Below are positions 1-4,340 of a stretch of 64,000 nt of DNA, one piece after another. How positions within the stretch are numbered: the first letter of the stretch is position 1; each line of letters starts with the position of its first letter. The translations under genes were made by a program, and so were the position numbers. Origin of the DNA: Candidatus Bathyarchaeota archaeon (GTDB taxonomy: Archaea; Thermoproteota; Bathyarchaeia; Bathyarchaeales; Bathycorpusculaceae); assembly GCA_963780185.1 (NCBI GenBank), contig CAWABA010000001.1, positions 224,001 to 288,000 on the forward strand, read 5' to 3'. The notes under the pieces were generated by a model. The model was not told where the DNA came from. It saw nothing but the letters and a program-made list of their open reading frames with translations, and searched no databases.

Positions 1-50
1 TCGATGTTGTTTCCGAATTTTATGGCTGGTCCTTTGATTTTCATGTTCAT
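1..50 (-). CDS. leuD: 3-isopropylmalate dehydratase small subunit, N-terminal part only (runs off window)
   Basis: Minus strand reads MNMKIKGPAIKFGNNID, a typical LeuD/HacB start; ATGA overlap with the leuC stop. Confidence 0.8.
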   Translation of the reverse strand, partial: MNMKIKGPAIKFGNNI

Positions 51-1315
51 GCTTTTGCCTCCAGTTTTCTTGGGTCAGTGATTTTTCCTGTTACTGCCGA
101 AGCGGCTACCGTTGCTGGGGAAGCTAGGAATACGCTGGCTTGGGTGCTGCCCATTCTTCCGATGAAGTTGCGGTTTGAGGTGCTGACGCAAGTTTCGTTT
201 GCCGCCAGTAAGCCGATGTGTCCGCCAAGGCATGGTCCGCATGCTGAACCGCAAACTATTGCGCCTGCGTCAATGAAGATATCCATCAAGCCTTCGTCTA
301 AAGCCTGCTTGTAAACTTCTTGCGACGCCGGAATCACAAGTGCCCGAACGCCGTCTTTTACGCGTCTGCCCTTCAGGACTTGAGCTGCTAAACGTAAATC
401 TTCGATTCTGCCGTTGGTGCATGACCCGATGAAAGCCTGCTCAATCGGAACGTCGCCGACTTCTGAAACAGGTTTCACGTTGTCGACTGATGATGGGCAA
501 GCAATCTGCGGCTCCAACTTTGAAACGTCAAAATCCACTGTCCGTTGGTAAACCGCGTCTTTGTCGCTTTTCAAGTCTTCAAAGTTTGGCAGAGTTTTGA
601 CTCTTCCTTCTAGGAATTTGCGGGTTGTTTCGTCGGGTTCGATGATGCCGTTTTTGGCGCCCATCTCCACCGCCATGTTGCACAGCGTCATTCTTCCCGC
701 TATGCTCATGTCTTTTATTGTTGGACCTGTGAATTCGGCGCTTTCGTAGGTGGCGCCGTCAACGCTTACTTTTCCGATTATTGATAAGATCAGGTCTTTC
801 GCGGTGACGTACTTTGGGAATTTCCCTGTCACGTTTATTTTGACGGCTTCAGGGATTTTGAGCCAAATCTTTCCAGTGGCTAAGACTGCCGCTGCTTCGG
901 TTGAGCCTATTCCTGTTGCGAACGCTCCGAATGCTCCGTAAGTGCATGTGTGCGAGTCGGCGCCGACGATTACTGTTCCTGGAACCACGTGTCCCTTTTC
1001 AGGCATGACTTGATGGCAGATTCCGCCTTTGCCCACGTCGTAAATGCGTAGGTTTTGGTCTTTGGCGAATTGACGCATGGTTTTATGCAGTTCCGCGGCT
1101 TTCACGGATTCAGCTGGCACCTGATGGTCCAGTATAACCACTGCTTTTTTGTTGTCCCAAACTTTCTGTACGCCTATTTTTTTGAAGGCTTCAACGGCTA
1201 ATGGCCCAGTTAAATCGTGCACCATTACCATGTCAACGTTTGCGTCGACTATTTCTCCTGGATGCACGGCTTTTTTTCCTGAGGCTTTAGCCAAGATTTT
1301 TTCTGTTATGTTCAT
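47..1315 (-). CDS. leuC: 3-isopropylmalate dehydratase large subunit (archaeal LeuC/HacA family)
   Basis: GADSHTCT, GSCTNGR, CGPCLG and STSNRNF aconitase motifs; ilvBN context favours leuC over hacA. Confidence 0.9.
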   Translation of the reverse strand: MNITEKILAKASGKKAVHPGEIVDANVDMVMVHDLTGPLAVEAFKKIGVQKVWDNKKAVVILDHQVPAESVKAAELHKTMRQFAKDQNLRIYDVGKGGICHQVMPEKGHVVPGTVIVGADSHTCTYGAFGAFATGIGSTEAAAVLATGKIWLKIPEAVKINVTGKFPKYVTAKDLILSIIGKVSVDGATYESAEFTGPTIKDMSIAGRMTLCNMAVEMGAKNGIIEPDETTRKFLEGRVKTLPNFEDLKSDKDAVYQRTVDFDVSKLEPQIACPSSVDNVKPVSEVGDVPIEQAFIGSCTNGRIEDLRLAAQVLKGRRVKDGVRALVIPASQEVYKQALDEGLMDIFIDAGAIVCGSACGPCLGGHIGLLAANETCVSTSNRNFIGRMGSTQASVFLASPATVAASAVTGKITDPRKLEAKA

Positions 1316-1362
1316 TTTTGATTCTCTTCTTCTAACGATTGATTTTTTTGTTTCTGATAACT

Positions 1363-1378
1363 ATGACAAGTTTGTCAT
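1363..1378. promoter_or_regulatory. Palindrome ATGACAA-GT-TTGTCAT between ilvN and leuC
   Basis: Perfect 7-2-7 inverted repeat about 17 nt downstream (minus strand) of a CCTTAATT TATA-like box. Confidence 0.45.
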
Positions 1379-1422
1379 TCTAAGAAAACTTGAAATTAAG
1401 GGTTTCCGTTCACGGCGACGAT

Positions 1423-1935
1423 TTATTCGTCTATTCTTACCGATTTTGCCCCTCTTGCCAACGCTGTTATGCCTGTTCTTGCGAGTTCAATGACGCCTGT
1501 TGCCTTCATCAAGTTTAGGAACGCGTCGAGTTTGTCAGGTGTACCCGTGATTTCTATGGTTAGGCTGTCAGTGGAGACGTCGATGATTCGTCCGCGGAAG
1601 ACTTCTACGCAGTTTATGATGTCTGAGCGGTCTTTGGCGCTGGGAGAGTTAACTTTTATCAGTGCTAGTTCACGCATTACGTAGGTTCCGGGTTCCAGCT
1701 CTTCGACTTTGAGCACATCGATGAGTTTTGCAACTTGCTGGATGACTTGAATTATTGTTCTTTCATCCTCTTTGACTGTGATGGTCATACGCGCGATGTC
1801 TTTTCGCTCGCTTGGGCCAACCGTGATGCTTTCGATGTTAAAGTTTCTACGTCGGAACAGGTTTGAAACTGCGAAGAGGACACCTGGCTTGTTTTCGACA
1901 AGCACCGAAATTATTTTGGTTCTTCCAGGTTCCAT
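1423..1935 (-). CDS. ilvN: Acetolactate synthase small (regulatory) subunit
   Basis: ACT motif ISVLVENKPGVL...RRNFNIESITVG; C-terminal ELARTG. Confidence 0.95.
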   Translation of the reverse strand: MEPGRTKIISVLVENKPGVLFAVSNLFRRRNFNIESITVGPSERKDIARMTITVKEDERTIIQVIQQVAKLIDVLKVEELEPGTYVMRELALIKVNSPSAKDRSDIINCVEVFRGRIIDVSTDSLTIEITGTPDKLDAFLNLMKATGVIELARTGITALARGAKSVRIDE

Positions 1936-3647
1936 CAGTAGTCACCTCTCTGTTGTGGCAAACCGCAGCCCGGCGGGACGAAGGGTACAACGTCGTGCTC
2001 GGAGCCTATTGGCACATCGATTACCGTGGTAACATTACTGGTAAGCGCTGTCTTAACTGCTTTGTGGAATTCCTCGATTGACGTCGCCCGTAGACCCTGC
2101 GCTCCGTAAGCCTCTGCCAACTTGACAAAGTCAGGTGTTTTGCCTAGGTCAATTGCCATGTAGCGGCGTTTGTAGAGCATTCGTTGCCACTGCGCCACCA
2201 TGCCCAGCACTGAATTGTTAAGCACTATGACGATGACGGGGATCTTTTCAGCTACGGAACACGCGAGTTCTTGCTCGGTCATTAGGAAACTGCCGTCGCC
2301 AGCTATGTCCACGACTGCTCTGTCTGGGCAAGCCACTTTTGCTCCTATAGCCGCTGGGAAACCAAAGCCCATGGTTCCAAGTCCGCCTGAACTGATGAAA
2401 GTTCTCGGCTTCAACGCTTGGAAGTATAGGGCTGACCACATTTGGTTTTGACCAACTTCGGTAGTGACGATGGTGTCCGCAGGTAACAGGTTTCTCAGCT
2501 CCATCAGCAGGGCTTTAGGCACTAAGTCTCTGGGTCTGTCTTTTAGCATTGGGCTTAACTGCTCTTTGGCTTCTCTAACACGCTTAGACCACAAGCTAAC
2601 TTTCATCCTTGGCAGCTTCTTTGTTGTAGCAGCCAGCAGATGCTTCAGCGACACTTTAGCGTCTCCAACGATTGGAACGTCAACTTCAATGTTCTTGCCG
2701 ATTTCCGCCGCATCAATGTCTATGTGAATCTTTTTGGCGTTGGGCGCAAAAGTGTCTAAATTGGCGGTTGCACGGTCAGAAAACCTTGTTCCAATGGCTA
2801 GCAGCACGTCGGCTTCGCCAATCAACCTGTTTGCAGCTGGGTTTCCATGCATCCCTATGCATCCAATTGACAGGGGGTGACATTCAGGAAAAGCGCCCTT
2901 ACCCATGAAAGTTGTCGCAACTGGCGCCATCAACAAATCTGACATCTGCATCAATTCGTCGGAGGCATTGGAAGAAATGACTCCGCCGCCAGCCAGAATC
3001 ATCGGGTATTCAGCCTCCGCCAGTAAATCCGCTGCCGCGCTGATTTTAGACAGGTCTGGCTCTAAGGCTGGTTTGTAGCCTCGGGCTTCGATTTTCTCTG
3101 TAATTCCCAGGTTTACTTCGGCGATGTCTGACTGCACGTTTTTAGGTATATCAATCAGGACTGGTCCAGGTCTGCCTGAGGACGCTATGTAGAATGCGGC
3201 GTTAACCATCGGTTGGATATCCGCGATGCTTCGCGGCTGATAATTATGCTTAGTGATGGGTGTGGTGATGCCGATGATGTCTGCTTCTTGGAAGGCGTCT
3301 CTGCCAATCATGTACGAAGAGTTGACGCCGCTAGAAGGAACCTGCCCTGTTATGGCTATCATCGGCGACGAATCCATAAACGCATTCGCGATTCCCGTAA
3401 CCAAGTTTGTCGCTCCAGGTCCCGACGTTGCCATGCAGACTCCTACTCGTCCGCTGGCTCTTGCGTAGCCTTCGGCGGCGTGTGCTGCTCCTTGCTCGTG
3501 TCTAGCGAGTATGTGCCTGATTTTCTCGTTGCCGCAGAGGGCATCGTACACTGGCAGTATGGCTCCGCCTAAGATGCCGAATATGACGTCGACGTTTTGT
3601 TTTTCAAGGGAATCTAAGAGTACTTTGGCTCCGCTCATTTTAGTCAT
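1935..3647 (-). CDS. ilvB: Acetolactate synthase large subunit
   Basis: RHEQGAAHAAEGYAR, TSGPGATN, and the TPP-binding motif GDGSF...NN. Confidence 0.95.
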   Translation of the reverse strand: MTKMSGAKVLLDSLEKQNVDVIFGILGGAILPVYDALCGNEKIRHILARHEQGAAHAAEGYARASGRVGVCMATSGPGATNLVTGIANAFMDSSPMIAITGQVPSSGVNSSYMIGRDAFQEADIIGITTPITKHNYQPRSIADIQPMVNAAFYIASSGRPGPVLIDIPKNVQSDIAEVNLGITEKIEARGYKPALEPDLSKISAAADLLAEAEYPMILAGGGVISSNASDELMQMSDLLMAPVATTFMGKGAFPECHPLSIGCIGMHGNPAANRLIGEADVLLAIGTRFSDRATANLDTFAPNAKKIHIDIDAAEIGKNIEVDVPIVGDAKVSLKHLLAATTKKLPRMKVSLWSKRVREAKEQLSPMLKDRPRDLVPKALLMELRNLLPADTIVTTEVGQNQMWSALYFQALKPRTFISSGGLGTMGFGFPAAIGAKVACPDRAVVDIAGDGSFLMTEQELACSVAEKIPVIVIVLNNSVLGMVAQWQRMLYKRRYMAIDLGKTPDFVKLAEAYGAQGLRATSIEEFHKAVKTALTSNVTTVIDVPIGSEHDVVPFVPPGCGLPQQRGDY

Positions 3648-3743
3648 TTCATCGTTTCTCCTTTGTGAAAACTATACTCTCGTCTAAAGAAAGAAATGTT
3701 TGAAAATATTTGAGTGGCTGTTTCAGAGGGTTTCCTGGGTGAA

Positions 3744-3800
3744 TCAAAGAATAAGTACCCGACGATCCCAGCGATTGAGGTGACGATCCCTCATTTTCAT
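3744..3800 (-). promoter_or_regulatory. Putative leader-peptide uORF MKMRDRHLNRWDRRVLIL* upstream of ilvB
   Basis: Read directly from the minus strand; GAGG lies 7 nt before the second ATG (3794); last four codons GTA CTT ATT CTT encode V-L-I-L. Confidence 0.55.
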
Positions 3801-3971
3801 GCCTCGTTAAATATTCCTTAAAAATAAACTGCTGAATCAATAAAAAGCTTGTGGTTAACGTTTAGTTGGATTCAATTTTTTGCGGGAAAAACCTTTTGTT
3901 TTTGGAGGTTTTTTCCTATTTTTTGGAAAGCCCTTATTACACAGAACAACTTTTTTCTTAGCTTGACCATT

Positions 3972-4157
3972 ATGTGCGAATTTAACGTTATTCTTGATGG
4001 AAAAACCCAGTTTAAAGATGTGATTTACGTTAAGGTTGACGGCGACAACGTGACGGTGAAGAACATTATGGGCGAATCAAAAGAGTTCAAAGGATGCAAA
4101 ATCACTGAGGTAGACGTCAACTACACTCGGCTGGTACTTGCGCGAGTAAAGCCCTAA
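3972..4157 (+). CDS. CooT-family nickel-binding protein
   Basis: MCE N-terminus, 61 aa, beta-rich; start moved to ATG 3972. Confidence 0.75.
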   Translation: MCEFNVILDGKTQFKDVIYVKVDGDNVTVKNIMGESKEFKGCKITEVDVNYTRLVLARVKP

Positions 4158-4275
4158 TTCTCGTTGATCTTGCGTTCTGAACCTTTTTTACTGCAAAGCA
4201 GCCTTTTGCCTAACGCATATTCAAGCTTTAAACCAAAAAAGCAACCCAAAACAAGCTCTGACGAAAACTCTCTAT

Positions 4276-4340
4276 CGAGGAGGGGTACCCCATTTTTACA
4301 TCAAAAAACCAATGTAAAAATGGGTCAAAAAGACCGAGGG
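4276..4340 (+). repeat. Dispersed intergenic element (AGGGGTACCCCATTTTTACA) with a 13-bp perfect stem
   Basis: 4281-4300 matches the reverse complement of 21260-21279 at 19/20; CCCATTTTTACAT (4289-4301) pairs with ATGTAAAAATGGG (4312-4324). Confidence 0.65.

Follow-up and report, generated by a model that had tools for sequence, protein, structure and literature searches.

A conserved leader reading frame ahead of ilvB in a Bathyarchaeota archaeon as a candidate one-codon sensor of leucine and valine

Introduction

Does the short open reading frame (ORF) ahead of an archaeal branched-chain amino acid operon sense the amino acids that this operon makes? The question was raised by a 64,000-nucleotide (nt) stretch of DNA from Candidatus Bathyarchaeota archaeon (assembly GCA_963780185.1, contig CAWABA010000001.1, positions 224,001 to 288,000 of the forward strand), which is called the window below and in which an upstream ORF (uORF) precedes ilvB on the minus strand. 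A preliminary description of the locus proposed that ribosomes translating the uORF stall at its last four codons (Val-Leu-Ile-Leu, VLIL) during branched-chain amino acid starvation and thereby control ilvB. Leader-peptide attenuation is a textbook bacterial mechanism, in which short ORFs such as ilvL, ivbL, leuL, hisL, and trpL of Escherichia coli carry codons that name the product of the pathway. The statement in the preliminary description that no archaeal example is established held up, since full-text literature searches surfaced no archaeal leader-peptide attenuator. Excerpts of two studies with archaeal ribosome profiling (PMC11456600 and PMC10117724) mention uORFs only in general terms, and an excerpt of a further paper (PMC13158618) cites attenuation for bacteria.

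Comparison of the locus with its relatives revealed conservation of the uORF, a fixed codon position within it, and a match between this codon and the pathway encoded downstream. The uORF is probably a translated leader in which ribosomes would sense hungry codons at Leu6 and Val13, the sensor codons of two fused units. The comparison thus supports ribosome-mediated sensing of the cognate amino acids, as originally proposed, and speaks against the VLIL run as the sensor.

Conservation of the leader frame upstream of ilvB

The uORF was found at 86 of 88 ilvB loci sampled from the window's order, and MRDRHLNSWDRRV followed by three codons was present at all loci of the same genus (30/30); an upstream Shine-Dalgarno (SD) word was required when the leaders for both counts were selected. 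Of the 86 leaders of the order, 48 start with ATG and 38 with GTG. Of 35 genus leaders, 32 have a frame of 16 codons. Genus alignments revealed that ATGAGGGATCGTCACCTCAATAGCTGGGATCGTCGGGTA is nearly invariant, third codon positions included, that GGGTA forms an invariant block of columns, and that sequence conservation between the ATG at 3794 and GGGUA exceeds that at the beginning of ilvB. At loci from other genera and families of the order (13/15 and 40/40), the frame opens with RUG-AGG-GAU and is preceded by an SD at a distance of 5 to 10 nt and by a TATA-like box at about 55 nt. When ilvB is preceded by an isopropylmalate-synthase gene, the leader sits 5' of the isopropylmalate-synthase gene instead. 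Of 80 ilvB loci at a greater distance, taken from bacteria and other archaea, only those of three close Bathyarchaeia (L048 to L050) have the leader; the remaining pattern matches at these distant loci lacked the leader context. A 17-mer of the leader is single copy in the window's genome. These results confirm that the ilvB uORF is a real conserved leader frame, beyond chance.

The elements of the leader in the window are as follows.

3839..3846, minus strand: TATA-like box TTTTTATT, predicted promoter of the leader transcript
3802..3805, minus strand: upstream SD motif GAGG of the leader ORF, read from the sequence
3744..3794, minus strand: leader ORF MRDRHLNRWDRRVLIL with its stop; the conserved start is ATG 3794
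3785..3792, minus strand: SD-like module of unit 1, GAGGGAUC, comprising the last AUG base and codons 2 to 4
3777..3779, minus strand: codon 6, CUC (Leu), proposed sensor codon of unit 1
3761..3771, minus strand: module of unit 2, CUGGGAUCGUC, a second copy fused in frame without a start of its own
3756..3758, minus strand: codon 13, GUA (Val), proposed sensor codon of unit 2
3747..3755, minus strand: variable tail codons CUU AUU CUU (Leu-Ile-Leu)

The frame M(KM)RDRHLNRWDRRVLIL contains ATG codons at 3800 and 3794 and ends with a TGA stop at 3746-3744; the start at 3794 is conserved, and the in-frame ATG at 3800 is not. GGGAUCGUC is present twice on the minus strand, at 3790-3782 and at 3769-3761. 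AGAGG is kept 7 nt ahead of the ATG in the genus alignments. Within the TATA-like box, CTTTTTAT is invariant or nearly so in a 30-sequence alignment, and a TATA-like word lies 5' of 79 of the 86 leaders of the order, at a median distance of 55 nt before the uORF start. The putative transcription start of the leader was placed from this box. The TATA-like box, the GAGG motif, the uORF, the duplicated GGGAUCGUC, and the complementary segments were all located where the preliminary description had put them. It had also proposed to test for a conserved short ORF with synonymous variation ahead of ilvB; the conserved ORF was recovered, and third codon positions are fixed within the genus.

Fixed codons of the ilvB leader

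Two codons are fixed in the genus leaders, codon 6 as CTC (35/35) and codon 13 as GTA (35/35). Across the 86 ilvB leaders of the order, codon 6 is always a branched-chain codon, Leu in 67 and Val in 19. The leaders with Val6 carry a second unit with Leu at codon 12 (14/19) or Ile at codon 12 (2), and in the other 3, an internal AUG opens a unit ending in Ile. In families f5, f11, and f12, the equivalent unit GGGAU-NNN-CGG-GUA has Val as its sixth codon. On the basis of these alignments, codon 6 (Leu, CUC) and codon 13 (Val, GUA), not the VLIL run, are proposed as the fixed sensor positions.

In the strongest rival reading, the sensor would be the Val-Leu-Ile-Leu run at the end of the frame, by analogy with bacterial ilvL, ivbL, and leuL, and ribosomes stalled on this run would govern a terminator at the U-tract. 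The VLIL ending occurs in the window leader, in 10 other leaders of the same genus, and in 2 from other genera; Val13 is invariant, U-runs are enriched in the spacers of the order, and in other orders of Bathyarchaeia, long terminal Ile/Leu/Val runs stand right before a GC hairpin. However, codons 14 to 16 vary freely. They read LIL after Val13 in 11 of the 35 genus leaders, and the other tails include QLF, FIL, HFY, QIL, QLL, LFL, YFF, PRN, and more. Three, two, one, and no Ile/Leu/Val codons were counted at these positions in 12, 9, 8, and 6 genus leaders, respectively, and only Val13 of the four terminal codons is fixed. The Ile/Leu/Val-run score, defined as the maximum number of Ile/Leu/Val codons in any 8-codon window of any ORF within 300 nt upstream, was not raised in the window's order (3.96 versus 4.14 for the antisense strand and 3.89 for shuffled sequences), and the Val/Leu/Ile enrichment that the preliminary description expected in orthologous leaders is absent there. 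In addition, folding of the window leader revealed no terminator-like hairpin. Sensing by the VLIL run is unlikely.

Agreement of codon 6 with the downstream pathway

A single regular expression (start codon, RGG, and four sense codons) was run on the regions upstream of ilvB, hisG, and trpE at loci surveyed across the class. It yielded 117 matches at 125 ilvB loci, with Leu (69), Val (19), or Ile (9) at codon 6 in 97 of the 117 and neither His nor Trp in any. The 30 hisG loci gave 32 matches with His at codon 6 in 25, and the 30 trpE loci gave 45 matches with Trp at codon 6 in 28. Counted by locus, His occupies codon 6 at 25/30 hisG loci, and Trp occupies it at 26/30 trpE loci, which come from seven families. 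The antisense control produced 33, 5, and 3 matches for ilvB, hisG, and trpE, respectively, and none of these had His or Trp at codon 6. The leaders of short-type thrS genes, which encode threonyl-tRNA synthetase, have Thr at this position at all three loci (MRDLETER, MGDLETHL, and MGNLETQL). The remaining loci comprise trpE loci L295, L300, and L306, with no such leader; trpE locus L290, with Trp at codon 4; hisG loci L275 and L276, with a tRNA gene upstream; hisG loci L263, L264, and L279, which are ambiguous; and the long-type thrS loci L321, L323, and L324, with no comparable uORF. Locus L326 proved to be mislocated.

A search for the module pattern matched 224 of 301 genomes of the order, with rare matches in the reversed control. 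Extra copies of the module in relatives read MRD(Q/R)VH... 5' of hisG and MRDRFW... 5' of trpE, and the hisG frame of family f24 is exactly MRE(Y/R)(V/I)H-stop. Genus g16 has a second copy at 4/5 loci, MRDRFLxR, which stands 138 nt upstream of a leuC/hacA-family gene; the fifth locus (L218) meets the contig end. The window's genome itself contains MRDCVH... before hisG, MGNRLW... before trpE, and MGYCFI-stop before an isopropylmalate-synthase gene. Since the locus counts are not independent, owing to shared ancestry, the independent evidence is the agreement across four gene families and six amino acids. This agreement points to the uORF being a member of a family of tiny one-codon leader frames that serve at least Leu, Ile, Val, His, Trp, and Thr in Bathyarchaeia.

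The window's genome was also scanned for leader ORFs with runs of Trp, His, Phe, Thr, or other codons, and the four candidates that were checked lay in long ORFs or beside unrelated genes. Relaxed motif scans of this genome were too noisy, and inspection by eye of the first residues of the ORFs downstream of 8 candidates revealed no amino acid gene.

The trpE and hisG regions showed further features. Inverted TGTACA repeats with a spacing of 5 to 6 nt stand directly 5' of the CCTTAAATA box at trpE promoters (L298 on contig C5 of the window's genome; L297, L302, L305, and L313). They resemble the TRP boxes bound by TrpY in Methanothermobacter, and a repressor may act beside the Trp-codon leader at trpE. 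The hisG leader of the window's genome (L285, contig C7) contains the direct repeat GATTGCGTTCAT, with copies about 20 nt apart and a complementary GCAATCC downstream, an arrangement that mirrors the duplicated GGGATCGTC of the ilvB leader.

Tandem units and other leader types in Bathyarchaeia

In relatives, the second unit retains an AUG or GUG of its own, as in MRDHWVSERHE-MGDRFIR and in tandem MGYRFV/MGYRFI frames. Multi-unit leaders contain one branched-chain codon per unit, for example, V, L, and I at L206 and V and I at L200, L201, and L065. In the tandem mini-ORFs of family f24 and a related genome, the stop codon abuts the next AUG (UAAAUG, UGAAUG, or UAGAUG) at 6/6 loci (L200, L201, L202, L206, L208, and L065). 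This abutment in family f24 appears to be a signature of translation.

A survey of 40 ilvB loci from other Bathyarchaeia families revealed two types of leader. The first consists of one to three tandem MGYRF(V/I/L) frames of six to fifteen codons with stop-AUG junctions and GGGG/CCCC alternative pairings. The second is a classical leader peptide of about 30 residues with a long terminal Ile/Leu/Val run and a GC-rich hairpin immediately after it. At least six of eight codons specify Ile/Leu/Val at 22/40 loci of other orders compared to 3/40 on the antisense strand. The run leaders share with the window leader their position ahead of ilvB and their occurrence in the same class, and a further likeness is a start-codon region complementary to the Leu/Ile/Val codons of the frame. 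They differ from it in their long runs, such as LIVIVILI and LVVLLIVVVLLV, in the GC hairpin right after the stop, and in the lack of the RGG-NAU module. In families f26 and f30 (L172 to L174, L177, L183, and L184), the start AUG lies within a box, GACGAUGAG, that is complementary to the Leu-Ile-Val codons of its own ORF (CUCAUCGUC), and a strong GC hairpin starts within a few nt of the stop. The presence of several independent ribosome-based designs ahead of ilvB makes the sensing reading more credible. With these designs taken together, ribosome-based sensing ahead of ilvB would be a recurring solution in Bathyarchaeia.

The constant module and its predicted pairing with the 16S rRNA tail

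The constant module RUG-RGG-(G/U/A)AU-YGY is common to the ilv, his, and trp leaders, and the thrS leaders keep RUG-RGG-NAU only. The residues that the module encodes switch between R/G, D/Y/N/E, and R/C/S/Q across families while the nucleotides stay alike, which suggests that the constraint acts on the nucleotides. The 3' end of the 16S rRNA of the window's genome is GGAUCACCUCCU. The strongest predicted pairing site for this tail in the whole window leader is GAGGGAUC (-12.6 kcal/mol), and the second best is the unit 2 copy, CUGGGAUCGUC (-10.8 kcal/mol). The mean pairing profile of 136 leaders has its deepest minimum at +1 to +12, and the minimum of the upstream SD is at -19 to -13. Mean 16S-tail energies at +1 to +12 are -10.7 (ilv), -8.7 (his), and -8.1 (trp), and those at the upstream SD are -7.7, -6.7, and -6.3, respectively; in these values, the SD-likeness of the module is favored partly by construction, because the family pattern demands RGG. 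If the tail is paired at the module, the P site would lie at about codon 5 and the A site at codon 6. This geometry suggests that the module may hold the ribosome in place at the sensor codon.

The same match between triplet and pathway could be read without a ribosome. T-boxes in Firmicutes control ilv, leu, his, trp, and thrS-type genes, and the leader might be a small T-box-like RNA in which the triplet at +16 to +18 is the specifier for the anticodon of uncharged tRNA, the 5' segment belongs to a tRNA-binding fold, and translation is not needed. With T-boxes, the leaders share the use of one triplet to specify the amino acid and the kinds of genes downstream, including an aminoacyl-tRNA synthetase gene, and conservation at the nucleotide level would suit such an RNA. 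However, an Rfam scan of positions 3300-4300 with E values up to 10 gave chance-level matches only, with no T-box or leader family, and neither a Stem I nor a T-box sequence is present. In every member counted, an in-frame ATG, GTG, or TTG stands exactly five codons upstream of the triplet, most of them with an upstream SD. A stop follows right after the triplet in the 6-codon forms, stop-AUG junctions separate tandem units, conservation is confined to about 20 nt, and the fold shows no unusual stability. These findings make a T-box-like RNA improbable.

Still less probable is a nascent peptide that senses free Leu or Val, in the manner of TnaC, SpeFL, or the fungal arginine attenuator peptide, so that the stall represses the operon. 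The frames are very short with a fixed N-terminal pattern, and some are exactly six codons long and end in the cognate residue. Nevertheless, the residues of the module interchange across families while its nucleotides stay similar, and, unlike in TnaC/SpeFL arrest peptides, third codon positions are fixed in the genus. A pocket formed by peptide and ligand gives no reason for the last residue to be the ligand in six systems, whereas codon-tRNA reading does. A DNA operator, in which a transcription factor binds the two copies of GGGATCGTC, 21 bp apart, downstream of the promoter and the ORF is incidental, is scarcely credible, since the direct repeat with two-turn spacing, the nucleotide-level conservation, and the single-copy 17-mer fit it, but the start codon at a fixed distance and the cognate codon 6 in ilv, his, trp, and thrS leaders stay unexplained, the changes opposite G are C to U with G-U pairs kept on this strand only, and the site lies about 30 to 70 nt downstream of the predicted transcription start.

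Proposed mechanism and possible output

In the proposed hungry-codon mechanism, each of the two fused units would open with a G-rich segment that matches the 16S 3' tail by complementarity (GAGGGAUC in the first and CUGGGAUC in the second), followed by two codons and the sensor codon. After initiation, the anti-SD tail of the elongating ribosome would re-pair with the SD-like segment and hold the ribosome in place while the sensor codon occupies the A site. If Leu-tRNA or Val-tRNA is scarce, the ribosome would remain on this codon and keep GAGGG, UCGUC, and CUGGG from pairing with CCCUC, GACGA, and CCCAG. The 96-nt spacer would then refold, so that the SD and start of ilvB, otherwise paired with the pyrimidine tract, become exposed and/or RNA polymerase passes the U-rich tract. 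Stalling would thus raise expression of the operon. With ample Leu and Val, the ribosome would terminate and depart, and the closed state would return. We infer that the frame is translated, that ribosomes pause by means of the SD-like segment, and at which level and in which direction the output acts.

With less assurance, the comparison favors a general modular system in Bathyarchaeia, composed of a start codon, a 16S-tail-complementary RGG-NAU segment, two spacer codons, and sensor codon 6. As parts of the same reading, one module with one codon changed would control ilvB, leuC, and isopropylmalate-synthase operons, hisG, trpE, and the threonyl-tRNA synthetase gene, and units could be chained to read several amino acids, in the window Leu and then Val.

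The segments downstream of the uORF that enter into this mechanism are as follows.

3725..3739, minus strand: CCCAG and CCCUCU segments, complementary to CUGGG and GAGGG
3685..3707, minus strand: U/C-rich tract UUUUCAAACAUUUCUUUCUUU, which pairs with the ilvB SD and start in the minimum-free-energy fold
3680..3684, minus strand: GACGA box, complementary to the first UCGUC (uORF codons 3 to 5)
3657..3662, minus strand: ilvB SD motif AGGAGA, kept in the genus alignment

In the window, CUGGG (3771-3767) is opposite CCCAG (3739-3735), and GAGGG (3792-3788) is opposite CCCUC (3730-3726). The predicted minimum-free-energy fold pairs the pyrimidine tract with the SD and start of ilvB. In 34 sequences, the CCCAG and CCCUCU segments are paired in 91 to 94% of cells. 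The CUGGG:CCCAG helix contains one compensatory pair (G-C to A-U) in 4 related sequences. UCGUC:GACGA is paired in 90% of cells, also with one compensatory pair (C-G to U-A) in 4 related sequences, and GAGGG:CCCUC shows only C-to-U changes, by which G-U pairs are preserved. RNAalifold analysis returned 15 pairs, none of them with compensatory changes, and neither this analysis nor the minimum-free-energy fold revealed a strong hairpin. A GAGG:CCUC pairing as a general hairpin was dropped, as the his, trp, and thrS leaders do not have it. T runs of at least 5 occur in 29 of 83 spacers of the order compared to 9.7 expected from shuffles, an enrichment of about threefold. Archaeal intrinsic termination is not known to need a hairpin.

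Several points weigh against the hungry-codon reading and its general form. The whole window leader has a minimum free energy of -34.2 kcal/mol, and it is not more stable than its shuffles (z = +0.74). The three helices GAGGG:CCCUC, first UCGUC:GACGA, and CUGGG:CCCAG are 92% paired in the 34 sequences versus 41 to 57% when slid, a percentage that is biased upward because the helices were drawn from the same 34 sequences. A duplex test of the uORF 5' core against the downstream leader showed no enrichment in 83 leaders of the order (mean z = -0.15), and complementarity in the trp leaders is only weakly enriched (mean z = -0.43, with 6/26 below -1.5). The U-tract and the pairings of the preliminary description are present at their sites, but the spacer of the window reaches only T4/U4, not U5 or more, and no more than two compensatory changes were seen for the pairings across the genus. 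Attenuators do not usually rely on a single sensor codon per unit. The constraint on the nucleotides of the module is by itself no proof of translation, and to this is added the built-in RGG of the family pattern. Finally, the genomes are all uncultured assemblies, and relatives share ancestry, so that the locus counts overstate the number of independent events.

As regards the output at ilvB, translational unmasking has a little short of an even chance and is placed slightly above premature termination, which is possible but more doubtful; the rest falls to both together or to another route. The trpE and isopropylmalate-synthase leaders differ in layout, as their uORF adjoins or overlaps the main ORF without a nearby canonical start. 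In several trp leaders, 8 to 13 bp can form between the uORF 5' segment and the region of the main ORF start. The adjoining or overlapping frames and these pairings favor translational coupling in the trp and isopropylmalate-synthase leaders concerned.

Inspection of the isopropylmalate-synthase genes behind MGYCFI/MGDRFI leaders revealed that in several genomes, no canonical start or SD lies near the conserved DTTLRDGEQ N terminus. Such loci are L328 1440-1640 (in the window's own genome, on contig C1, about 39 kb beyond the window end), L165 to L167, L213, L216, L219, L221, and L222. The uORF stop lies 17 to 25 nt upstream, or a long frame overlaps the uORF, and the same holds for trpE in the window's genus. 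Termination-reinitiation coupling may operate at the isopropylmalate-synthase genes and trpE.

Comparison with known systems

The bacterial attenuators (E. coli ilvL, ivbL, leuL, hisL, and trpL) resemble the window leader in that a short SD-bearing ORF ahead of a biosynthesis operon contains codons that name the product, several branched-chain amino acids are represented per leader, and alternative pairings involve the ORF sequence. The window leader differs in having a single sensor codon in each unit (codon 6 in the first, codon 13 in the second, fused one) and no cognate run, an SD-like module before the sensor codon, no terminator hairpin with a U-run in the predicted folds, and an archaeal host. 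Translational attenuation of ermC and cat offers a second likeness, as ribosomes stalled early in a very short leader ORF would change the RNA fold and make a downstream ribosome-binding site accessible; unlike in ermC and cat, the signal would be a lack of charged tRNA and not a drug, and sequestration of the SD is predicted from the minimum-free-energy fold. In contrast to the T-box specifier, the sensor triplet belongs to a reading frame with a start codon and an SD. The frameshift site of RF2 (prfB) and SD-induced pausing in general also involve an internal SD-like segment a few nt upstream of a waiting codon, but no frameshift is implied in the window, and the effect on archaeal ribosomes is predicted.

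If the proposed reading is true, the leader family would be the first case of leader-peptide attenuation in Archaea, and control of genes by tRNA charging coupled to translation would exist in this domain. The design, in which re-pairing of the anti-SD tail parks a ribosome on a single hungry codon, would amount to a compact, reprogrammable one-codon amino acid sensor and would give internal SD-like sequences a testable role in the pausing of archaeal ribosomes. Leaders in Bathyarchaeia genomes would become annotatable, with the regulating amino acid predictable from a single codon.

Neighboring genes

The genes downstream of the leader were assigned with NCBIfam.

47..3647, minus strand: ilvB (3647-1935), ilvN (1935-1423), and a leuC/hacA-family gene (1315-47)

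The ATG of ilvB lies at 3647, and the product matches the acetolactate synthase large subunit (TIGR00118; 746 bits). The ilvN product matches the small subunit (TIGR00119), and the product of the gene at 1315-47 matches the large subunit family of isopropylmalate dehydratase. A divergent 61-codon ORF (MCEFNVILDG...) at 3972-4157 on the plus strand has no NCBIfam hit and is not conserved beside the leader in relatives. The operon runs on past the window with a split leuB and then a leuA-like ORF. At this site (L168 9299-11548, minus strand, just past the window start), leuB is present as two overlapping ORFs, and the leuA-like ORF lacks the N-terminal part. The split leuB and the shortened leuA-like ORF represent either frameshifts or assembly errors in the window's genome.

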